A stretch of DNA of 46,075 bases from a virus. The position numbers were made by a program, and so were the translations under genes. Shown in pieces: positions 2,647 to 43,599 of this stretch (positions are counted from its first letter, which is position 1; the number at the start of each line of letters is the position of its first letter). The stretch spans positions 1-46,075 of IMG/VR virus record IMGVR_UViG_3300002461_000377; one strand, written 5' to 3'. Below the pieces are notes generated by a model that did not search any database, was not told where the DNA came from, and worked only from the letters and a program-made list of their open reading frames with translations.

Positions 2647-3870
2647 ATGGCAAAAGACGCCTCATTTTTTGACGCGTACTTTGCCTATACTGCCGGCGAT
2701 GAAGTACCGCTTATCTATCATCGGTGGTGTGCAATAGCTGGAGTCGGCGCCTTGTTAGGTCGCCGGTTCTGGCTTAAGCACGGGCGTAGTACCATATGGC
2801 CAACGCAGTACCTGATGCTTATTGGTGGTCCCGGTGCCCGCAAAGATACAGCGATAGCATGCATTCGCGGGTTACTAAAAGCTAGCGGGTATGAATCCTT
2901 AGCAGCTACTAAGACAACAAAAGAGAAGTTCCTCTTGGACTTAGAAGGGCTCCCGGAGGGGCAAATAACGGCGGAGCAACTAGATGAATTCTTACGAGAA
3001 GACTCTGACCCTCGGGAAGTTTTTATCATGGCAGGGGAGTTCGGAGAATTCCTAGGCTATGGTAACATAGAGTTCGTATCCCTGCTGACAGCGTTGTGGG
3101 ATTATACGGGTGTGTTTGAGTCTCGTCTTAAGAACTCGCGCTCGGTTAAGATACAAGATCCAACTGTCAGCATACTCGGAGGTAACACGCCCGCGGGATT
3201 TGCACTTACTTTCCCGCCAGAAATCATCGGGCAGGGATTCTTTAGCCGCTTACTACTTATCTACGGAGAGCCGACAGGGAGACGTATCACCTGGCCTACA
3301 GTACCATCAGAAGCAGATGTCGCTGCTATGGCTAAACTGATGAGGGATATTCAATATGCTATCCATGGCGAAGCTATCCTTCCGCCTGACACACAGCTGG
3401 CACTTGATGAGATTTACCAGGGCTGGAGTGATTTGGAAGATGCTCGGTTTCTTAATTACAGCAACAGGAGACTTACTCATCTATTTAAGCTGTGCCTTAT
3501 TTGTGCTGCTTGCCGTCTTTCAAGAACTGTCGAGTTACAGGATGTTACCCTTGCCAATACCATTCTTACACACGCTGAAGGACTTATGCCTAGAGCACTG
3601 GGCGAGTTTGGTAAAAGCAGGCATGCTGATGTTAGCGCTAAGGTGCTATCTTTTTTGGAGACAGTAGGGAAGCCCGCGACTATCACAGATATTTGGAAGG
3701 CCGTCTCCACGGATCTTGAGAAGCTCAATGACTTAGGTAATATCCTCATGAACCTGGAGCAGGCGGAGAAGATTCAGCGCGTAGCTAAGCAAGGATTCCT
3801 GCCGCTGAAGAAGGCCCGCGGAGTTAATAGTAAGTACGTAGATTTTTCGTTGTTACCTGAAGCACGTTAA
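2647..3870 (+). CDS. P-loop NTPase, putative replicative helicase (DUF3987/VirE-like by motif impression)
   Basis: Walker A-like LIGGPGARKDT, acidic FIMAGEFGEF, and an ILGGNTP block. Lies next to the DNA polymerase. Confidence 0.5.
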   Translation: MAKDASFFDAYFAYTAGDEVPLIYHRWCAIAGVGALLGRRFWLKHGRSTIWPTQYLMLIGGPGARKDTAIACIRGLLKASGYESLAATKTTKEKFLLDLEGLPEGQITAEQLDEFLREDSDPREVFIMAGEFGEFLGYGNIEFVSLLTALWDYTGVFESRLKNSRSVKIQDPTVSILGGNTPAGFALTFPPEIIGQGFFSRLLLIYGEPTGRRITWPTVPSEADVAAMAKLMRDIQYAIHGEAILPPDTQLALDEIYQGWSDLEDARFLNYSNRRLTHLFKLCLICAACRLSRTVELQDVTLANTILTHAEGLMPRALGEFGKSRHADVSAKVLSFLETVGKPATITDIWKAVSTDLEKLNDLGNILMNLEQAEKIQRVAKQGFLPLKKARGVNSKYVDFSLLPEAR

Positions 3871-29519: not shown

Positions 29520-30140
29520 TTAAATTCCATACTTTGTTTCGAGCTCTCCTTCAAGCACTCTGCCAGCAATTCTTGCTCGCGCTGCCTCCTTAAGAGCTGC
29601 AACTGCCTCAGTTTCTCCTCCTCCGGTGCCGGCGGCGTCTGTGAGCAGCTTATCGATGTCTTCACCTTGTACCTCCTTCATTAGTACATTAGATGGCATA
29701 GTTGCGAGTTCTTGGGAATCGACCCCGATGACAATGCCGCTAGCATCAACTTGAAAGCGGGCAGTGACTATATTCGGCATCGATAGTTTAACGATAGTCT
29801 TGAATTGCTGCCCGCTCGTAGGATCGGAACTCCCACGACGCTGAGCCTTATTAAGAAGCATGAGGGCCCGAAATACTTCCCCAGGCTTTACGAAGAAATC
29901 CTTGATATCATCGAGCTTCTCAAGGAAGTAATCTTCGAGTTGATCATAGCGCTGATCCCGCAGTGTAGCACTCTGCAAGTTCTGAAAGCGCAACTCCGCT
30001 ACTTTCTGCGCAAAATCATCCTCTGATAGCAGCTGAGAAACGCGGGAGATGTCAATACCGAGTGCAAGCGCTACCACGGTAGGAGATTGTCCATTACCTA
30101 ACAACTGCAATGCTCGATCCCGGGTACTATTACCACTCAT
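29520..30140 (-). CDS. Terminase small subunit candidate with a helix-turn-helix (206 aa)
   Basis: ATG at 30140 lies 8 nt after AAGGGAG. HTH-like SPTVVALALGIDISRVSQLLS. Immediately upstream of terL. The longer GTG start at 30305 lacks an RBS. Confidence 0.5.
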   Translation of the reverse strand: MSGNSTRDRALQLLGNGQSPTVVALALGIDISRVSQLLSEDDFAQKVAELRFQNLQSATLRDQRYDQLEDYFLEKLDDIKDFFVKPGEVFRALMLLNKAQRRGSSDPTSGQQFKTIVKLSMPNIVTARFQVDASGIVIGVDSQELATMPSNVLMKEVQGEDIDKLLTDAAGTGGGETEAVAALKEAARARIAGRVLEGELETKYGI

Positions 30141-30378
30141 CGCGGGCGCTCCCTTCGCTGTTACGACTGACTTTACTACTAACTTAGAACGCGGGCCACC
30201 GGCCTTTTTCGAAAACGCGCTTACGTGGCCCGCCACCTGCGTATCATACGCTGCCCGCGATGAAAGAGATAAGGAGGGATCTTGATACGTGCAGGCTGCT
30301 AACACTAGCGCTAACAGAGTGAAAAATTTTTTAGGAAAATTAGCGAGGGAGTTAAGGAGTATGTTTGGACGACGACTT

Positions 30379-31351: not shown

Positions 31352-32002
31352 CTAGATGAGTTCCTCCAGGTCGAGCGCTTCAGGCTGCAAGATAAGATCG
31401 AGCTTCTTGGCGATGTCGTCTCGCATAGAGGACGCGGGCGCTAGTTTCTTCAGGAGGTCGATTAGTTTCTGCGCGTCGGTCTTGTTTATCTTCGGAGCTA
31501 CGGATGCAAGTTTTTGGTAGGCTTCTGCGTAGTTGTTGCAAGTCGCAGCAATCTTAGCTTCATCGGTGATGCCCTTGGCAACGAGTGCTTCAGTGATGCC
31601 GGGGAGCATATCGCTATCGAACCAAGCTGCGATGCCTTCCTTGTTCATGCGGCGCTTGCTGTTCTCGGCGTTGGCGTATGCTATGATAGCATCAAGGGTG
31701 ATCTTATCGCCGTGAATGTCTTGCGCGCCCCCGGTGTCAATGAGCGTCTTGATGATGCTATCTTGCCAGTCGTTAATTGCACCTTGCAGCGCCTTGATTG
31801 TAGCGGCGCGGGTGAGGTCGTTGAGCTTCGGCAGTTCTGCGCCGATGTCAATCGTTGGTATCTCAACGAATTTGTTTTCCTTCTTCGCCTTCTTGGCTTT
31901 CTTGTCTTCCTCGGTCTGGCGGTAGGTGAGGATACTCAAGCGATTACCTTCTGCGGGTGTTTCCTTGCCTGTGTATGCGCGCACGCTGTAAGAGGTAGTC
32001 AT
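31352..32002 (-). CDS. Hypothetical early protein (216 aa), a possible distant paralogue of 38659..39393
   Basis: Clean ORF with Lys-rich N-terminal segment KKAKKAKKENK. By-eye similarity to the other gene in blocks such as GI..W.D...P..AL...GI....IA. Confidence 0.55.
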   Translation of the reverse strand: MTTSYSVRAYTGKETPAEGNRLSILTYRQTEEDKKAKKAKKENKFVEIPTIDIGAELPKLNDLTRAATIKALQGAINDWQDSIIKTLIDTGGAQDIHGDKITLDAIIAYANAENSKRRMNKEGIAAWFDSDMLPGITEALVAKGITDEAKIAATCNNYAEAYQKLASVAPKINKTDAQKLIDLLKKLAPASSMRDDIAKKLDLILQPEALDLEELI

Positions 32003-32007
32003 GATGA

Positions 32008-32208
32008 TTAAATCTCCTTGTGGTAGAGGTCTAGGATTTCAAAAGGCGTATCGATCGGGTCTTGCTGCATTGCTAGGATATACACGACATGCGAGCGGAT
32101 TGTGTGATCGCCGGTCGTAACATCAGGCTTATGCGGGTGTGTCACCTTTACTTTCTGATGTGGCTTGGTAAGGTGCTTCAGTAGTACGAGGATCGTTATA
32201 TAGTGCAT
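32008..32208 (-). CDS. Hypothetical small protein (66 aa), the first gene of the leftward unit
   Basis: ORF ends 5 nt before the next start. RBS is weak. Confidence 0.35.
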   Translation of the reverse strand: MHYITILVLLKHLTKPHQKVKVTHPHKPDVTTGDHTIRSHVVYILAMQQDPIDTPFEILDLYHKEI

Positions 32209-32303
32209 GGTGCTTGTGTTCCTTTCTTGCTATCCTCGGGGGCCTGCCGAGGCAGGTGGTGCGGTACTGCACCTATATAGTAAGCAGAGATCATGCCACG
32301 GAG

Positions 32304-32331
32304 ATTATATTTTACCATCCTTGATTATTAA
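32304..32331 (-). promoter_or_regulatory. Sigma70-like leftward promoter candidate
   Basis: The minus strand reads TTAATA, a 16-nt spacer, then TATAAT (perfect -10 at 32304..32309). It is followed by a structured leader containing CCTCGG/CCGAGG and GGTGC/GCACC stems. Confidence 0.45.
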
Positions 32332-32470
32332 GGGTTTTTTCTGGCATGCTGGTTGCTAGGTGTGGCGGTGCGTCGTCGTTGTTGTCGAGATCTCAGCAGG
32401 TAAGCTGGCACGATCTTTGCCGCCGCCGCCCCCTTTGCCGAGCATGGGGTTGGTGTTAAGGAGGTATGTT

Positions 32471-32563
32471 ATGAGCGGAGATGGTAGCACCTCAAAGCGT
32501 GTAGCTGCCTCACATTTCTGGTTCTTACCCTGCGAATGCAATGAGCACTGGTTAGCGCAGTAG
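32471..32563 (+). CDS. Small ORF (30 aa) behind a strong Shine-Dalgarno sequence
   Basis: TAAGGAGG lies 6 nt upstream of the ATG at 32471. Peptide: MSGDGSTSKRVAASHFWFLPCECNEHWLAQ. Confidence 0.3.
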   Translation: MSGDGSTSKRVAASHFWFLPCECNEHWLAQ

Positions 32564-32823
32564 ATGCGAGCGCTGTTGGTTCTTATGAGCGGAGTCGATG
32601 CTATTGTCCGTATTCGTGGTCAGTGTCTTCGCAGCGCGACGAATCCTAGCTCTTTCCCTCAGCCTCTTGTGAGCTTGCGAAACAAGACTCGATAGCTCTT
32701 GACCTTGCGCGGGAGTCTGAGGGAGCGCAGCGGCCCCTCAGCGGACTGGCTTCGGTATTTAGACAAGCACTGGGATCACTGATATTAGCAGTAAAGACTA
32801 AAGGCAATGAAGCGGGTAATGGC

Positions 32824-33084
32824 ATGAATAAGATAGTATCTCAAGTGAATGAAGATCCCTGCGATGTACGAGATGTACAAGAAATACAACGAATACACGC
32901 ATACACCCCACCCTCTCCCCCTATATATGAGGCTTGGGGATCTTCACTATCTACCCTTAGCTTTCTTTTTCTTTACTTAAAGTGGGGGTATAAATATGAA
33001 GGTCGATCATGGAGCGAGTTGGTAAATAAGAAGGAGAAAAACAGGGAAGTGAAGATCCCCAAAGGCCGAAATAGGGGGTGGTAG
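32824..33084 (+). CDS. Small ORF A (86 aa) reading through arm 1 of the inverted repeat
   Basis: Encodes S.VN.DP...RDVQEIQRI...TPPS.P.Y..WGSSL, which is paralogous to ORF B. Differences between the arms are in-frame indels and several synonymous changes. Confidence 0.3.
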   Translation: MNKIVSQVNEDPCDVRDVQEIQRIHAYTPPSPPIYEAWGSSLSTLSFLFLYLKWGYKYEGRSWSELVNKKEKNREVKIPKGRNRGW

Positions 33085-33152
33085 AGGGGGGTGTTATGGT
33101 GTTTTCTGGTATTTTGCGTATTTCTTGTATATCTCGGGGATCTTTGACTGAG
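32840..33152. repeat. Imperfect inverted repeat (quasi-palindrome). Arms are about 32840..32948 and 33047..33152, with centre near 32998.
   Basis: Arm 1 aligns with the reverse complement of arm 2. Shared blocks: GATCCC, CGAGAT(G/A)TACAAGAAATAC, CACCCC..CCTCT, CCCCCTAT, TTGGGGATCTTCAC. The centre contains the AT-rich TATAAATAT. Confidence 0.85.
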
Positions 33153-33280
33153 CGTGATAGTTTCTCTTCTCCTCGTAGCACTGGGGAAAACAGCACTATG
33201 AAAGTAAGAAAGCCCTTAAAGCGAAAATTTCTCTTGACACTGCCCGCGATTTCCGGCAAAATCGGGATTGGTTCGGGCAT
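32957..33280 (-). CDS. Small ORF B (107 aa) reading through arm 2 of the inverted repeat. It is convergent with ORF A and overlaps it.
   Basis: Encodes S.VK.DPRDIQEIRKI...TPPS..PYF..WGSSL. See ORF A. Confidence 0.3.
   Translation of the reverse strand: MPEPIPILPEIAGSVKRNFRFKGFLTFIVLFSPVLRGEEKLSRSVKDPRDIQEIRKIPENTITPPSTTPYFGLWGSSLPCFSPSYLPTRSMIDLHIYTPTLSKEKES
33234..33262 (+). promoter_or_regulatory. Sigma70-like rightward promoter candidate
   Basis: TTGACA (33234..33239), a 17-nt spacer containing TGCCCGCG, then CAAAAT (33257..33262). Confidence 0.4.
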
Positions 33281-33397
33281 CCGCCTGGGCCGTGGTAAGA
33301 GAAGTCTTAGTAAGACCTGAAGGCAGGAACACTGAAGGCAAGCAAGTCATAAGACGAGTCACTTACGAGATGCTAGATAACAACTGGAGATACTACG

Positions 33398-33565
33398 ATG
33401 CCCCGGATACCTCATGGCTTTGCTGTAATGTACTGGCTGGACGATGAGAAGCGAATGGTTGCCCGCGTTTTCCCTACAGAAGTAGCCGCGGTTCTTTACG
33501 CTGATAGCATGTCAGCAAGCTTGCACCCACAGGTTGTCGCACTGTTCATTCGCAGCACCAACTAG
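33398..33565 (+). CDS. Small hypothetical protein (55 aa), below the ORF-track cutoff
   Basis: ATG at 33398 lies 7 nt after GGAG. MPRIPHGFAVMYWLDDEKRMVARVF.... Ends 24 nt before the next gene. Confidence 0.35.
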   Translation: MPRIPHGFAVMYWLDDEKRMVARVFPTEVAAVLYADSMSASLHPQVVALFIRSTN

Positions 33566-33589
33566 ATACTAAGCTCAAGGAAAGTAACC

Positions 33590-34591
33590 ATGCAGATACT
33601 ATGTCGTTTCAGTGCGCTCACACTGTCCAGATACGAGCACTTCAAGGGCCTGCACATTGCTGATGTGCATCCTATCTTCGAAGTAAAGAGTAAGATCCTC
33701 TGGAAGATAGCACGGAGCTTCCTCGATGAGCGCACTACGAAGGAAGAGCGGAGACTGATCTTCCTTGCTATCGCTAACTCCACCGGCCTCATGCGCTTTC
33801 AAGTGCCCGCGGAACCTAGCGATAATACCATACTGAATTGCTTCCATCAGCTGCAAGCAATCGCGGGCTGGATTGAACACCTGCAAGCACCTGGCGTCAG
33901 GTTCCCGGCTTACGTCGTAAGAACTGAGAATAGAAACCTTCATAACTTCAAAGACTGGCTCAAGGCCCTTGAGGAAGTTAAGAAAGCATTCTACGAGGGC
34001 CAGGCAACACAAGAGCATAAGCACCGCATGACGCTGCTCGAAGATAAGCTGACACGGCTGATCCTCTCGCAAGTAACACAAGGTAGCCGAGGCATTACTA
34101 ACCTCATGGCCACCTGGGCACTTGATGCTAGCGAAGCACCGCGGGAATGCAAGCCTACATGGATGAAGATCCTAAATACACCGCGGGATAGGATCTACAC
34201 GATCAGCAGCACTGACATCAAGTCACTGATATCACACCTGGAGGAGAACCTTCCCCACGGATCAATTGCTGCTACTGCAGTCATGCGGCGAGTGCGGGAA
34301 CTACTACAGCAGCAAGCTGATGGCCTAGGTCTCTATGAGATCCTTACTGACGATGATAGCGATGCGAGTCCCAACGGTGCGCAGAGAAATGAGGCTATCA
34401 CCAGCGAGATAGCGAATACGCCCGCGGCGATAACAGCTGCTATCATGGCCCCGATCGCTGAGCCAGTGCCCGCGAATTACGGTAGCAAGGTATCATACCT
34501 TATTGCTAAGGCACAGTGGAACCTCGCACAGAACGCACTGGCTAATGCTGCAAATAACACAGTGAAAGCTGAGAATAAGGAGCAATCATGA
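33590..34591 (+). CDS. Hypothetical early protein (333 aa)
   Basis: AAGGAAAG RBS. ATGA overlap with the next ORF. Confidence 0.55.
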   Translation: MQILCRFSALTLSRYEHFKGLHIADVHPIFEVKSKILWKIARSFLDERTTKEERRLIFLAIANSTGLMRFQVPAEPSDNTILNCFHQLQAIAGWIEHLQAPGVRFPAYVVRTENRNLHNFKDWLKALEEVKKAFYEGQATQEHKHRMTLLEDKLTRLILSQVTQGSRGITNLMATWALDASEAPRECKPTWMKILNTPRDRIYTISSTDIKSLISHLEENLPHGSIAATAVMRRVRELLQQQADGLGLYEILTDDDSDASPNGAQRNEAITSEIANTPAAITAAIMAPIAEPVPANYGSKVSYLIAKAQWNLAQNALANAANNTVKAENKEQS

Positions 34592-34942: not shown

Positions 34943-37264
34943 ATGACAATCGGAATGGGAAAGATACTAGCTGCGATAGCAGCAGCGAAGGCGAAGCGAG
35001 AGGCGGAGCAGCAGCAGGCAACTGAACAGCCAGAGCCGCCGCTGCCCACAACCTTCTATCTCGCAGATCCTAACTTCGCAGAAGCGCCTGATACCACAGA
35101 TACCACAGATACCACAAATGCTAACATCGTCCTGCATGGCAAGGAGTATAACAAGGAGCAATCCGAGGCAATACGTCGCGTTGCTGCCGGCGAATCTATC
35201 TGCATGATCGGAGCTGCGGGCACTGGTAAGACCACAGGCACCCACGGCATGGCTCACTATCTCATAGATCGCGGGCTAGGATCTATTGGCGCTAGTACAA
35301 AGTGGCTATCGCACGATGCTCCCGGGGTTGTTATCCTATCCTTCACTCGGCGTGCTACAGCTAACATTAAGCGTCAAATGCCCGATGATCTTAAAGGTAA
35401 CACCCTTACCTTTCATAAGATCCTGGAGTATAGGCCGGTCATCTACGAAGAATACGATCCGGCAAAAGGTAAGCTTGTTAAGAAGCGCAGGTTCGAGCCT
35501 TTTCGCAATCGTAATAATCCTCTGCCCGCGGGTATTAAGGTTGTCATCGTCGAAGAATCTTCGATGCTTGGCCTTGATCTTTTCATGCGCTTTTACGAAG
35601 CTCTCCCCTTCCCTGAGAAAGTGCAGTGGGTCTTCCTTGGTGATATCAATCAGCTGCCTCCTGTCTTTGGTAAGAGCATCTTCGGGTACAAGCTCCTCGA
35701 ACTGCCTGTTGTCGAGCTTACGCAGATTTACAGGCAAGCTCTCGAATCTCCGGGCCTGCGACTAGCTCACGCAATTAAGGACGGCGCTATCATTCCTTCG
35801 GAACTAGAGAAGGGCCGGCACGTTGTCCCTAAGGAGTGGCATCATCCGGGCAAGCTCACGATACGCTACTGGCAGCGTGAGATACAAGAGGACGAGGCGC
35901 TACTTACAGCGTACGGTTTCCTTAAGAAAGGAATCGAAGATGGCTACTACGATCCTTATGCCGACATGGTGCTCCTACCTTTCAATAAGCGCTTCGGTAG
36001 TATCGAACTCGGTAACTACATCGCTAATTACCTCGGGAAGCAGCGCGGTGCGGTAGTGCATGAAGTGATCGCGGGCTTCAATAAGCACTACCTCGCTGAA
36101 GGTGATAAGCTGCTCTATGATAAGGAAGATTGTATCATCGAACGTATTACTCCGAACGAGGGTTACATGGGGGTGCCCGCGCAACTTGCTAGTATCCACA
36201 TGGATCGCTGGGGCGTAGTTCACCAGGCAAGCGATGTCAGTGAGATAGAGAGGAAGAAAGCGCTAGATACTGGCCCCACTGATGTCACTGACATTGACTT
36301 CCTCCTCGCACAGACTGACGTAGAAGATAGAGTACACGCAGCATCGCATACTATCGTGCTACGCATGACTGGCATGAGCGGTGCCGCCGGCGGCTCTAAG
36401 GTAGCACAGAGCGACGATGACGATCTTGATAACGACGATGACGATGCACGCACTGTTACGATAAGCGATGCAGCTGAGATTAACAAGCTCATTAGCGGGC
36501 ACGTCATGACAGTGCATAAGAGTCAGGGCTGCGAGTGGAGGAGAGTATTCTACTTCATTCATCGGTCACATAGCATCATGGCTTGCCGGGAGATACTCTA
36601 CACTGGCACCACACGCTTTCGTGAAGAGCTTGTCATGATAGTGGAGCCGGATAGGGGCACTCCTGGTACTAAGAGCTTCAAGGCAGGTACTTTCCGGAAA
36701 GGGATCGAAAGCCAGCAAATCCCTGGTAGCAATCTCCACGAGAAGCTAGAGCACTTCCGGGAAGAACAGCTTAAGGCCCTCTCGCAGCTTAAGAATGAAG
36801 AGGATAAAGATGAGATAGCAAAGCTCCTCTTTATCATCGGAGATAAGATTAAAGCTCGTATCAAAGAGCAGGTAGAAGTACATCGAGAAGCTGTGGAGAA
36901 GGCTGCCCGCGATGCCTGGGAGAAACTCGTAGCACTCGATCCTGCTAAGCGATACATCCCGCGGTATCAGGTAGATATCAGCGTCTCGTTCGGAGATACC
37001 GCAGGCACTGCGCAGTCGAAGCCCGGCACTAGCATCATCACCATCGACAGCACTTACCTTATTAAGAACCCCAAGGAGTGCATCGAGCGTACTGTGCCGC
37101 ACGAGGTAGCGCATATTGCTAATACCTGCTGGAACGAAGGAAGCGGGCACGATCGCGGGTGGAAGGCACTGATGAAGGAACTTGGCTTCGTTCCTGATAA
37201 GGAGATCTTTCATCACATGGGCTCCAGGCAAGCAGCCCTGCAAACCGTAGCGAAAGGAATGTGA
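34943..37264 (+). CDS. SF1 (RecD/Dda-like) DNA helicase fused to a C-terminal SprT-like zinc metallopeptidase domain (773 aa)
   Basis: Helicase motifs: GAAGTGKTT, VIVEESSML, GDINQLPPV, LTQIYRQ, VHKSQGCEW. Acidic insert DDDDLDNDDDD. C-terminal VPHEVAHIANTCWNEGSGHDRGWKALMKELG (HExxH plus GH..W). Confidence 0.8.
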   Translation: MTIGMGKILAAIAAAKAKREAEQQQATEQPEPPLPTTFYLADPNFAEAPDTTDTTDTTNANIVLHGKEYNKEQSEAIRRVAAGESICMIGAAGTGKTTGTHGMAHYLIDRGLGSIGASTKWLSHDAPGVVILSFTRRATANIKRQMPDDLKGNTLTFHKILEYRPVIYEEYDPAKGKLVKKRRFEPFRNRNNPLPAGIKVVIVEESSMLGLDLFMRFYEALPFPEKVQWVFLGDINQLPPVFGKSIFGYKLLELPVVELTQIYRQALESPGLRLAHAIKDGAIIPSELEKGRHVVPKEWHHPGKLTIRYWQREIQEDEALLTAYGFLKKGIEDGYYDPYADMVLLPFNKRFGSIELGNYIANYLGKQRGAVVHEVIAGFNKHYLAEGDKLLYDKEDCIIERITPNEGYMGVPAQLASIHMDRWGVVHQASDVSEIERKKALDTGPTDVTDIDFLLAQTDVEDRVHAASHTIVLRMTGMSGAAGGSKVAQSDDDDLDNDDDDARTVTISDAAEINKLISGHVMTVHKSQGCEWRRVFYFIHRSHSIMACREILYTGTTRFREELVMIVEPDRGTPGTKSFKAGTFRKGIESQQIPGSNLHEKLEHFREEQLKALSQLKNEEDKDEIAKLLFIIGDKIKARIKEQVEVHREAVEKAARDAWEKLVALDPAKRYIPRYQVDISVSFGDTAGTAQSKPGTSIITIDSTYLIKNPKECIERTVPHEVAHIANTCWNEGSGHDRGWKALMKELGFVPDKEIFHHMGSRQAALQTVAKGM

Positions 37265-42431: not shown

Positions 42432-43337
42432 ATGAACCTTAATGAGTACAACGGCCAGGCATTTCAGAAGATACTTATATACGGGCCGGCGAAGATGGGT
42501 AAGAGCGCACTCGCAGGCACACTAGCGGAGTTCTTTAATGTCACGTATAACGACGCGGAAGATGGTGTCAAGACGCTCTTGCAAATGCCATCGGAGTGGA
42601 AGGCCCGCGTGGATCTCGTGCAGTTCCCTGACACGCAGGATTACCCGATATTTGCAGAGAGCGCACTTAAGATCCTGCGTGGCGGCGAAGTTACGATCTG
42701 TAATACACATGCGAAGGTAGACTGCATGTTGTGCAAGGCTAATAAGAAGCCTCTGACCACGGAGCATCTTAATGCCCGCGACCCGCAGCGTGTTTATATC
42801 TTCGACAGCTGGACTCAGTTTCGTATCAGCTGCATGTGGCAGCGCTATCGTACGGCGTACAAGGGTAAAGAGCCCGAAGACTGCAAGTTCGAGTGGGATG
42901 ACTGGCACTGGCTTAAGATGGTAAATGAGAAGGCAGGCAGTTACATACAAGCTGCCCGCGGCCATCTTGTTGTTGTCAGCCACGAGGAGATGGTAGAGCA
43001 GGAAGATAAGCGGAAGCAGGTCGTGCCAGTCGCGGGCAGCGAGAACACTAACAAGACCTTTGCCCGCTACTTTGATCATGTTATCTACGTGACGAAGCGC
43101 AACAATAAGATCCGCTATATCAGTGAAGCTACCGGCAGCAACGATGCAATGTCCGGGTCTCGTGCGTCCTTCTCCATCGAAGGCATGAAGCAAGAGACTC
43201 TCTCACTTGCCCCGTTCATTGATCCCACGCTTATTAACAAACCCCGGAAGGGTATCAGCGGCTTTGCTTTCGCAGCTCAAGCAGCTAAGAACGCAGCTTC
43301 CGGTAAAGCTGATGACAAGGAGAAGTCTGGTGAGTGA
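42432..43337 (+). CDS. RecA-fold ATPase of the AAA_24/Sak4-like type with a Cys4 insertion (301 aa)
   Basis: Walker A ILIYGPAKMGKSALAG, Walker B VYIFDSWT, and insertion CNTHAKVDCMLC. Confidence 0.65.
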   Translation: MNLNEYNGQAFQKILIYGPAKMGKSALAGTLAEFFNVTYNDAEDGVKTLLQMPSEWKARVDLVQFPDTQDYPIFAESALKILRGGEVTICNTHAKVDCMLCKANKKPLTTEHLNARDPQRVYIFDSWTQFRISCMWQRYRTAYKGKEPEDCKFEWDDWHWLKMVNEKAGSYIQAARGHLVVVSHEEMVEQEDKRKQVVPVAGSENTNKTFARYFDHVIYVTKRNNKIRYISEATGSNDAMSGSRASFSIEGMKQETLSLAPFIDPTLINKPRKGISGFAFAAQAAKNAASGKADDKEKSGE

Positions 43338-43599
43338 GAATCAAGAGTTCGATATACACGACCCTCTGACAAGGGTTGCCATCGTGGATACGATGAAGGC
43401 CCTGGTAGCACTGCCCGCGGGAGTTACTGCTACGGAGTTCCTCGCGCTGATCCGTCCGCTGCAAGAGCAGCACGGATTTAAGGCTGTAATATACTGCGTA
43501 GTAGCAGCACTGCTGGCGCAGAAGGGAGTAATTAAAGCAGCTGAGACACATATCGAGAGCGCCTTGGCAGCACTCGCTACTTTCAAGGAGCCGAGATGA
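43330..43599 (+). CDS. Hypothetical protein (89 aa)
   Basis: GTG at 43330 lies 7 nt after AAGGAG. ATGA overlap with the next gene. Confidence 0.4.
   Translation: MSENQEFDIHDPLTRVAIVDTMKALVALPAGVTATEFLALIRPLQEQHGFKAVIYCVVAALLAQKGVIKAAETHIESALAALATFKEPR

Follow-up and report, generated by a model that had tools for sequence, protein, structure and literature searches.

A conserved element of mirrored short iterons between the two gene arms of an uncultured podophage

An inverted repeat between the late and replication gene arms

The sequence analyzed here (46,075 nt, positions 1 to 46,075 of IMG/VR virus record IMGVR_UViG_3300002461_000377; hereafter, the window) contains a long imperfect inverted repeat, located in a 1.6-kb gene-poor gap between the late gene arm, on the minus strand, and the replication gene arm, on the plus strand. 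The inverted arms that had been noticed in a preliminary description of this DNA are borne out: they extend from about 32831 to 32976 and, in the opposite direction, from 33165 to 33022, with ungapped segments that are 71–75% complementary and a perfect inner pair of 15 nt (32934-32948 and 33048-33062). The local score of the inverted repeat, 66, is far above chance (shuffle mean 16.8, s.d. 2.3), and the repeat is unique in the genome, where the next-highest adjacent-window inverted repeat scores 24. The center had been described as AT-rich, which holds moderately, its GC content being 0.38–0.42 compared to about 0.51 genome-wide.

The repeat consists of two mirror-image modules that face each other over a core of ~100 bp, such that two mirrored iteron arrays lie ~190 bp apart. 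A GATC-containing box, 4–5 short iterons in tandem and a tract of C-runs (or G-runs) make up each module, and in four of the six phages compared here (the window, L002, L003, and L004 only) an inverted inner box is additionally present. The features of the locus are, by position in the window and strand:

32716..32788 (+): flanking conserved module, hairpin CTGAGGG-N11-CCCTCAG followed by GCTATTTRGACAAG and a TGnTAnTAn element
32824..33084 (+): mini-ORF1, 86 aa, a chance open frame over the left arm and core that is not conserved in the relatives
32851..32860 (+): outer box of the left arm, GAAGATCCCT, with an ATCCC core invariant in 12 of 12 arms of six phages
32863..32906 (+): left iteron array, five tandem units of ~9 nt, in order GATGTACGA GATGTACAA GAAATACAA CGAATACAC GCATACAC, core GTACA/ATACA, core spacing 9, 9, 9, and 8
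32906..32921 (+): C-run tract CCCCACCCTCTCCCCC, G-runs if read on the minus strand
32934..32948 (-): left-arm inner box, TTGGGGATCTTCACT, a perfect inverted match to 33048-33062
32950..32988: core of the element, comprising the conserved block TTTCTT(T)ACTTAAAGTG(R)GGG and a degenerate box of the GATCCCTAT type
32957..33280 (-): mini-ORF2, 107 aa, a chance open frame over the right arm and early promoter, its only homolog being itself
32975-32983: small palindrome ACTT-A-AAGT inside the conserved core block
32989..33047: variable A-rich spacer, GC ~0.38
33048..33062 (+): inner box of the right arm, AGTGAAGATCCCCAA
33074..33091 (+): G-run tract GGGGGTGGTAGAGGGGGG, which mirrors the left C-run tract
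33092..33135 (-): iterons of the right arm in inverted orientation, five GTAT/GTGT units repeating every 8–10 nt
33136..33145 (-): right-arm outer box, which reads GGGGATCTTT on the plus and AAAGATCCCC on the minus strand
33222..33262 (+): sigma-70-type early promoter, with an A-rich upstream tract, -35 TTGACA (33234-33239), a 17-nt spacer, and -10 CAAAAT (33257-33262)

The element ends about 90 bp upstream of the early promoter, in which TTGAC and AAT are invariant in the six phages. On the other side, the stem of the hairpin in the flanking module is compensated in L004 (CTGAGAACG..CGTTCTCAG); GCTATTTRGACAAG together with the TGnTAnTAn element may constitute a rightward promoter into the left arm, judging from the motifs. 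A scan for a GATAGTAGCA-type motif as a phage promoter was not informative. The neighboring 333-aa protein is specific to the clade of the window and has no match in Pfam, PHROGs, or the PDB, and neither a Foldseek comparison of its AlphaFold2 model (pLDDT 67) to the PDB nor a profile search of the PDB sequences retrieved a match.

We rejected the possibility that the locus is a MITE/IS or an invertible segment because the element is single-copy, occupies a fixed syntenic position and is always in the same orientation, the core being oriented identically relative to the neighbor gene in all six phages; no recombinase was seen among the proteins of the genome that were scanned. Clustering of Dam/GATC sites was likewise rejected as a signature of the element, given that GATC is neither rare genome-wide nor clustered uniquely here. 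The assembly closes as a circle, with a 94-nt overlap located away from the element, and the contig breaks, which fall in low-complexity tracts and not at the element, were rejected as indicators of physical ends.

Open reading frames across the arms

The preliminary description interpreted the locus as two convergent, overlapping paralogous mini-proteins that are subject to purifying selection and coupled through antisense transcripts. Both open frames indeed exist in the window genome and overlap by 128 nt, and the peptides can be aligned over the portions that the arms encode (17 of 40 residues identical, with two gaps). The shared peptide motif, however, is a translation of 9-nt tandem DNA repeats: read in frame, GATGTACGA GATGTACAA GAAATACAA CGAATACAC yield DVR DVQ EIQ RIH, that is, the “RDVQEIQRI” peptide is the translation of the iterons. 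The length differences between the arms, which had all been counted as multiples of three, are such in the peptide alignment only, whereas the nucleotide alignments contain several mutually cancelling gaps of 1 and 2 nt. Mostly synonymous or conservative differences had been reported as well, but mismatches between the arms affect first, second, and third codon positions alike (6/33, 6/34, and 7/35, respectively, in the ORF1 frame, and 8/34, 5/33, and 6/35 in the ORF2 frame), with no third-position bias.

The comparison to related phages points in the same direction. In L002, L003, and L004, the corresponding frames contain stop codons or lack a start codon, the 8-nt iteron period of L005 and L006 cannot be read in a single frame, and the convergent ORF pair is found in none of the five relatives. 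No credible protein homolog was detected for either ORF. Among 5.8 billion cluster representatives, the sole match to ORF2 is the identical 107-aa protein itself (P0008, from a JGI source), whose longest contig, 46,075 nt, equals the window in length; this entry is a point in favor of a protein. The database search with ORF1 yielded a single weak match, to seven stretches of a 1138-aa protein (E = 1e-4), and neither ORF has a match in PHROGs. On a near-identical Logan contig, the gene caller called neither ORF, and the N-terminal third of the minus-strand ORF2 runs antisense over the sigma-70 promoter that is kept in all six phages.

Thus, with no third-position bias, with frame-breaking indels of 1–2 nt, and with stops or missing starts in relatives, the interpretation of the locus as a pair of selected, antisense-coupled paralogs is refuted by the criteria that had been set for it in the preliminary description, and we regard it as extremely improbable. 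The two open frames are by-products, chance frames over a conserved DNA element, because 9-nt iterons are read as three-residue repeats and the C-rich tracts are poor in stop codons. Two spurious “genes” are accordingly removed. The segment 32851-33145 is, almost certainly, a cis-acting non-coding DNA element rather than a gene pair, and its architecture suggests that it is most likely bound by protein.

Conservation of the element and analogous loci in cultured phages

We compared the window with five diverged relatives (L002–L006) that were obtained by protein-cluster search and contig look-ups, for a total of six phages and 12 arms. Searching the phage genomes of INPHARED with the DNA of the region and of half the genome produced no match, and scans of IMG/VR and the JGI metagenomes with the neighbor proteins, their alignment, and the box-core DNA pattern produced no further relatives.

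The same modular architecture is present at the same syntenic place in all five relatives, in which the neighbor protein is 44–67% identical to that of the window, and the 12 arms can be aligned module by module. The C-run tract, in the inward reading, is found in every arm of every relative. The conserved T-rich core block, with its small palindrome ACTTAAAGT, can be recognized in all six phages and ranks among the best-conserved parts of the locus; large indels are present in the core in L005 and L006. Four phages (the window, L002, L003, and L004) have plus-orientation boxes of the form GAAGATCCCY at a distance of 200–205 bp, a spacing that does not hold in L005 and L006.

The iterons fall into two subgroups, 9-nt units with the core GTACA/ATACA in the window, L002, L003, and L004, and 8-nt units with the core GAACSG in L005 and L006, such that the iteron core and the period change together in both arms. 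Across genomes, the left and right sides have stayed symmetric, with changes on both of them at 33 positions, compared to 20.1±3.3 in shuffles. This paired switch, together with the kept symmetry, is what two arrays that are read by one co-evolving protein would show. The arms group by side, not by genome (the right arms are 67–78% identical to one another, whereas the left and right arms within a genome are 54–64% identical); therefore, the duplication is old and both copies have been maintained. The conserved feature of the locus is the DNA architecture, not a protein.

Analogous, unannotated intergenic loci were found in Pseudomonas phages of the Fredfastierviridae, to which the PaMx41-type matches belong, and in Polaromonas phage Tiera:

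PaMx41: 43290-43490 and 1-250
20Aug470: 736-1128
Tiera: 44.6-45.1 kb

These phages are related to the window phage by the large terminase (35% identity) and the portal protein (32–34%). As in the window, their loci combine inverted iterons, G-tracts, ATCCCC/GGGGAT boxes and an AT-rich center, directly upstream of the replication module; Tiera has GGGGAT-type boxes only, on one side only, and the center is palindromic in PaMx41. PaMx41 also shares the gene order, with genes for proteins of ~340 aa and ~110 aa and for a Dda-like helicase. The iterons differ in sequence (CAAGGT/ACCTTG or ATGTAC/ATGTTCG) and in number, the G-tracts differ in polarity, and the 333-aa neighbor protein of the window shows no detectable homology to gp54 of PaMx41, which occupies the same gene position. 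The GenBank records of PaP2, 119X, and PaMx41 are all linearized within 1 nt of the center of a 10-bp palindrome, CTTAT|ATAAG (the bar marking the center), in the analogous core. No function is assigned to these loci in the records, and gene callers placed small hypothetical ORFs there; in the cultured Pseudomonas phages, these ORFs are probably spurious as well.

Possible functions of the element

The element could well be a bidirectional iteron-type origin of replication, a reading that we favor tentatively. The idea of a bidirectional origin had been raised in passing in the preliminary description and survives, given the mirrored iterons, the AT-richer conserved core, and the location next to the replication module; the accompanying suggestion that the origin had captured coding potential is unsupported. 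Several observations argue for an origin: the inverted repeat is unique and highly significant, its modular architecture is syntenic in five relatives, coding is excluded, and a structured RNA is not supported. Tandem replicon-specific short repeats are present, with 4–5 units per arm and with a core and period that are conserved within each subgroup, and the core, with its conserved T-rich block, is a candidate unwinding region. The paired iteron switch, the kept symmetry, the old and maintained duplication and the composition of the core would all fit an origin, and the analogous loci directly upstream of the replication module in the Fredfastierviridae and Tiera suggest the same by analogy.

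Mirror-symmetric initiator sites around an AT-rich core are characteristic of the archaeal ORB-DUE-ORB origins and of the core origins of SV40 and other polyomaviruses, where this arrangement implies head-to-head loading of two helicase assemblies; the archaeal ORB elements, in addition, carry a G-rich string. The resemblance is architectural only, as the replicon here is a bacterial-viral one and no Orc/Cdc6 or large-T homolog was seen. Replication origins in general include iterons, an AT-rich unwinding element and transcriptional activation, and in lambda ori and the origins of P1, F, RK2, and R6K, tandem initiator-binding repeats adjoin an AT-rich unwinding region near the replication genes, with nearby transcription able to activate the origin (PMC5043065). 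By comparison with these origins, the element has two mirror-oriented arrays of 8–9-nt units (core of 5–6 nt), additional G/C-run tracts and GATC boxes, and no recognizable initiator gene was found. Most plasmid iterons are in phase with the DNA helix (PMC5043065), whereas the periods of 9 nt (window, L002–L004) and 8 nt (L005 and L006) are out of helical phase. The absence of a recognizable initiator and this phasing, along with the only modest AT-richness of the core and the lack of special enrichment of GATC at the element, count against an origin.

If the element is an origin, a phage-encoded sequence-specific protein would bind the iterons of both arrays in opposite orientation, and the resulting nucleoprotein complex would distort and melt the core, so that the replication machinery could be loaded in both directions. 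Candidates for this machinery are the DUF3987 primase-helicase or, together with the Dda-like helicase, the two neighboring proteins of 333 aa and 117 aa; transcription from the flanking promoters possibly assists. The core block with its palindrome is a candidate site of DNA melting or, alternatively, of cleavage. A PaP2-like phage, Shea, is reported to persist as an episome (PMC13348215), which requires an origin.

Cleavage at the core is the essence of the main rival reading, which we take seriously but consider rather unlikely. The iteron arrays might bind the small terminase around a central cleavage site, at the core palindrome or the boxes, in which case packaging would begin here or the site would delimit a short terminal repeat. 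The models are pacL-pacC-pacR of SPP1, a terminase recognition region in which repeats lie on either side of a central cleavage zone, and the repeat boundaries of phages tf and LUZ24; in these systems, too, protein-binding-type repeats flank a central zone, ~300 bp across. The position of the locus fits this reading: a gene arm begins on either side of it, the two arms meet again on the opposite side of the genome, and podophages whose ends are defined (tf and LUZ24, for example) have their termini at the corresponding place. Moreover, the dyad center of the CTTATATAAG palindrome in the analogous core coincides, to within 1 nt, with the point at which the PaP2, 119X, and PaMx41 records are opened, so that the core could, by analogy, be a terminase cut site, which also weighs against the origin; these records, however, contain no terminal repeat and were possibly opened merely to match one another. 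PhageTerm reports terminally redundant ends for Shea, but Tiera has no reported termini despite a PhageTerm run. The terminal repeats of LUZ24 and tf span 184–186 bp, with GATATCCC / GGGGAATATCCC at the boundaries, near which ATCCC-containing boxes and twin G-runs are found (PMC3517423). The 200–205-bp box spacing of the window and L002–L004 is close to this length, but fails in L005 and L006. The analogy to LUZ24 and tf had to be downgraded, because the DNA similarity to their junctions is not significant and no relationship of the large terminase to its tf counterpart could be detected (E 0.68), only one to that of PaMx41 (35% identity). The locus is also far from the terminase genes, 2.7 kb from the candidate small terminase gene (29520-30305), and in PaMx41, four genes and a terminator intervene between the analogous locus and the terminase genes. 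A composite of the two readings, in which a single element serves as a bidirectional origin and as the site of the first terminase cut, at the core palindrome, thereby coupling the initiation of replication (or episomal maintenance) to packaging, appears improbable to us; under it, the architecture would be common to the uncultured clade, Tiera, and the Pseudomonas Fredfastierviridae, and the combination of mirrored very short iterons, G/C-run tracts, ATCCC/GGGGAT boxes and a palindromic AT-rich core would be a previously undescribed one.

We assign a similarly low likelihood to the possibility that the iterons bind a phage regulator of the divergent early and late promoters, acting as a temporal switch, or else an adaptor for partition in the episomal state, in the manner of parC of plasmid R1, where two iteron arrays flank a promoter. 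The conserved sigma-70 promoter 90 bp to the right, the possible promoter just to the left that would read into the element, the similarity of the Fredfastierviridae iterons (CCTTGAC) to -35 hexamers, and the reported episomal persistence of Shea are compatible with such a role, but the conserved promoter lies outside the arrays, no ParA-, ParM-, or repressor-type protein was recognized among the genes scanned, and the palindromic core and the G/C tracts would have no obvious role. It is very unlikely that the functional entity is a nucleic-acid structure, for example an extended imperfect hairpin or cruciform serving as a single-strand origin or primer hairpin, or a folded RNA transcribed across the arms. 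As single-stranded DNA, 32836-33160 does fold into one long hairpin (-64 kcal/mol, z = -9.2), and the left-right complementarity is kept across genomes above shuffled or slid controls. Nevertheless, 26–30% of the proposed pairs are mismatched in any single genome, most of the double changes trace to one split, between the two subgroups, and large core indels are tolerated in L005 and L006; RNAalifold found no consensus structure, with 0 pairs predicted on the 12 arms, the box-box stem has no excess covariation, and Rfam and tRNA scans were empty.

Whether as an origin, a packaging start, or both, the element likely represents the cis-control center in a podophage lineage that has received little study and counts therapeutic-candidate and pseudolysogenic Pseudomonas phages among its members. 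It is most likely an ordinary kind of cis element, here in a little-studied group of phages, and, as the mechanism itself would be a familiar one, it is of modest general interest. The coordinated change of iteron sequence that separates the subgroups, in turn, provides a natural specificity swap for finding the binding protein.

The inverted repeat and its two open frames

The window, whose first 94 nt recur at the end, is a circularly closed assembly; the phage genome itself measures about 45.98 kb. Two gene arms diverge from a 1.6-kb gene-poor gap (32002-33590) that contains the inverted repeat. Proteins of 333 and 117 aa are encoded in the plus-strand gene arm, along with a Dda-like helicase that is fused to an SprT-like domain. 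This arm also has genes for a PD-(D/E)XK nuclease, Sak4-like annealing protein, family-A DNA polymerase, DUF3987 primase-helicase and MazG-like enzyme. In the Dda/RecD-like helicase (34943-37264), the SprT-like metalloprotease domain is C-terminal (residues ~672-750), and the fusion is common to three related phages (L003, L005 and L006).

Features of the window surrounding the inverted repeat
4776-32002, minus strand: gene arm with the large terminase, portal protein, SU10-type capsid protein and tail genes
33398 across the window end to 4804, plus strand: gene arm with the replication genes (see text)
32851 (+), 32936 (-), 33051 (+), 33136 (-): inverted copies of the GAAGATCCCC box bounding each arm of the repeat
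33234-33262, in the region 33222-33310: sigma-70 early promoter (TTGACA, 17 nt, CAAAAT) with an A-tract upstream

The preliminary description of this locus was largely right in what it observed. The inverted repeat is real. Its ungapped matches are 55 nt long at 71% complementarity and 36 nt long at 75%, and the inner pair of 15 nt is perfect; in the gapped alignment, 32831-32976 is matched with 33165-33022. The local score is 66 compared to 16.8±2.3 in shuffles, and all other adjacent 200-nt window pairs in the genome score 24 or less. The outer box is separated from a C-run tract by five tandem 9-nt units (iterons). The two convergent mini-ORFs, ORF1 (32824..33084, plus strand, 86 aa) and ORF2 (32957..33280, minus strand, 107 aa), also exist and overlap by 128 nt.

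The interpretation of these frames as a pair of paralogous mini-proteins fared differently. Mismatches between the arms are evenly distributed over the codon positions in the frames of both ORF1 (6/33, 6/34, 7/35) and ORF2 (8/34, 5/33, 6/35), and those between orthologous arms are likewise equal over the three positions. The length differences, all claimed to be multiples of three, include many 1- and 2-nt gaps in nucleotide alignments. The shared peptide D-V-R-D-V-Q-E-I-Q-R-I-H is the 9-nt iterons GATGTACGA GATGTACAA GAAATACAA CGAATACAC read in frame, which explains why the arms resemble paralogous peptides with in-frame length differences. Among five diverged relatives (L002-L006), none has the convergent ORF pair. 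The homologous frames of L002, L003 and L004 contain stops or lack a start codon, and the iteron period of L005 and L006 is 8 nt, unreadable in one frame. Database searches with ORF2 recovered solely the identical 107-aa protein itself, and those with ORF1 a single weak, multi-stretch match to a 1138-aa protein; neither matched PHROGs, and gene calling on a near-identical Logan contig predicted neither. ORF2 runs antisense to the sigma-70 promoter in its first third. The codon-position evenness, the 1-2-nt gaps, the stops or missing starts in relatives and the lack of credible homologues rule out two paralogous mini-proteins; judged from the sequence, the coding interpretation is wrong.

Architecture of the locus in related phages

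The five relatives were located via the neighbouring 333-aa protein (44-67% identity), and the same modular architecture occupies the same place in all six genomes; the twelve arms can be aligned module by module. In each arm, an outer box whose ATCCC is invariant is joined by four to five iterons, a tract of C-runs (G-runs in the other arm) and a short T-rich stretch; an inner box in inverted orientation is present in the window, L002, L003 and L004. The core between the arms contains a GATCCCTAT-type box and a block, TTTCTT(T)ACTTAAAGTG(R)GGG, that is recognisable in 6/6 phages, is among the best-conserved stretches of the locus and includes a small palindrome, ACTT-A-AAGT (CACT-AAA-AGTG in L003). 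Four phages (the window, L002, L003 and L004) have GTACA/ATACA iteron cores that recur every 9 nt, and those of L005 and L006 are GAACSG and recur every 8 nt; within each genome, the two arms agree in this.

Right arms are 67-78% alike between genomes compared to 54-64% for the two arms within one genome; therefore, the duplication is ancient, with both copies kept. Left-right symmetry is retained across genomes to a greater extent than in shuffled and slid controls, with 33 positions changed on both sides versus 20.1±3.3 in shuffles; the signal is weaker among the four closest phages alone. Because a single iteron switch between the subgroups accounts for much of this signal, and 26-30% of the proposed arm-arm pairs are mismatched in any genome, we read the symmetry as a sign that both arrays follow a single DNA-binding specificity, and not as base pairing between the arms. 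A hairpin or cruciform as the functional entity is a minor alternative: RNAalifold gave no consensus fold in the arms, the box-box stem showed no covariation, and Rfam and tRNA scans yielded no matches.

The closest large terminases and portals (32-35% identity) belong to PaMx41, PaP2 and 119X, which are Pseudomonas phages of the Fredfastierviridae, to EBPR podovirus 3 and to Polaromonas phage Tiera. PaMx41 shares with the window the gene order ~340-aa protein, ~110-aa protein, Dda helicase. Directly upstream of this module, PaMx41 and Pseudomonas phage 20Aug470 have an unannotated region with five CAAGGT(A) iterons, a G-run tract and three ATCCCC boxes; next come an AT-rich centre, boxes of GGGGAT/GGGAAT, a G8/C4 tract and iterons in the inverted form ACCTTG. 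At the divergence point of Tiera, ~400 bp separates inverted ATGTAC/ATGTTCG iterons, and the locus also has G-runs and GGGGAT boxes. These similar loci indicate that the architecture is a lineage-wide feature. By its sequence organization, the element (32851-33145) is an iteron-bearing cis element of a podophage clade that is uncultured, and cultured relatives carry counterparts that are unannotated. The small 'hypothetical protein' CDSs annotated over the iteron arrays of 20Aug470 (L018 706-840, 1090-1344) are probably spurious, like the two mini-ORFs of the window. Tiera carries an exact 72-bp tandem duplication (L020 5429-5572) over the G-run/GGGGAT part of the analogous right arm.

A possible replication origin or terminase site

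The leading explanation, which we hold tentatively, is that the element is a replication origin, a secondary idea of the preliminary description. It is consistent with the iterons and AT-richer conserved core, with the adjacent replication genes and their promoter, and with the PaMx41 locus, which adjoins the replication module. The locus features match general iteron-origin anatomy (PMC5043065), the PaP2-like phage Shea is reported to persist as an episome (PMC13348215), and the mirror symmetry of the arrays would imply bidirectional loading. However, no recognisable initiator was found, and the 8-9-nt iteron periods are out of helical phase.

A terminase recognition or terminus site appears somewhat less probable. 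The locus lies where podophages with convergent transcription units, such as tf and LUZ24, have their ends, but it is not significantly similar to the junctions of these two phages, and the large terminase is not detectably related to that of tf. For PaP2, 119X and PaMx41, the records open no more than 1 nt from the midpoint of a palindrome, CTTAT|ATAAG, in the analogous core; these records, however, lack a terminal repeat and were perhaps opened to match one another. The ends of Shea are terminally redundant by PhageTerm, although no termini are reported for Tiera. The plus-orientation boxes are 200-205 bp apart in four phages, yet the terminase genes are distant from the locus, in PaMx41 with four genes and a terminator in between. 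Operator or centromere arrays are a minor possibility.

Promoter, hairpins and other repeats

TTGAC and AAT of the strongly conserved early promoter are invariant in 6/6 phages, and in the relatives, the leader downstream contains a conserved GC hairpin, CCAGGG-AGCC-CCCTGG. Another conserved hairpin (window 32716-32770, L002 ~3330-3400, L004 ~2560-2665, L003 ~985-1050) has a compensated stem, CTGAGGG..CCCTCAG versus CTGAGAACG..CGTTCTCAG, with AGCGCAGCGG(C) as its conserved loop; GCTATTTRGACAAG and a TGnTAnTAn element come after it. This module, situated on the right side of the inverted repeat in L003 and on the left elsewhere, may represent a leader or a terminator-promoter unit. A second long-range inverted repeat is present in L002 (2848-2884/3077-3113) and L006 (2487-2526/2692-2731), where it occupies the gap's left part, with arms of 37-40 nt, 84-85% complementary and 165-192 nt apart; no counterpart was found in the window.

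The gap of the window also contains a low-complexity tract, CCGCCGCCGCCCCC (32420-32436), at which the near-identical Logan contig terminates in a run of 27 C (L001 1-27); the contig behind L003 begins in a (GTGCTGC)n repeat (L003 1-30). Such contig ends are probably assembly break points rather than physical ends.

The octamer TGCCCGCG occurs 54 times in the whole window (for example, at 636, 4150, 33241 and 33460) versus 2.4±1.7 in shuffles, with a strand skew of 41 plus to 13 minus (20 to 2 inside the plus-strand gene arm). All clade relatives (L002-L006) have it at ~1 per kb; the Pseudomonas and Polaromonas phage loci have no copy. Possible readings of the octamer are a Chi-like, an uptake-like or a nick-site-like motif, and one copy lies inside the early promoter spacer.
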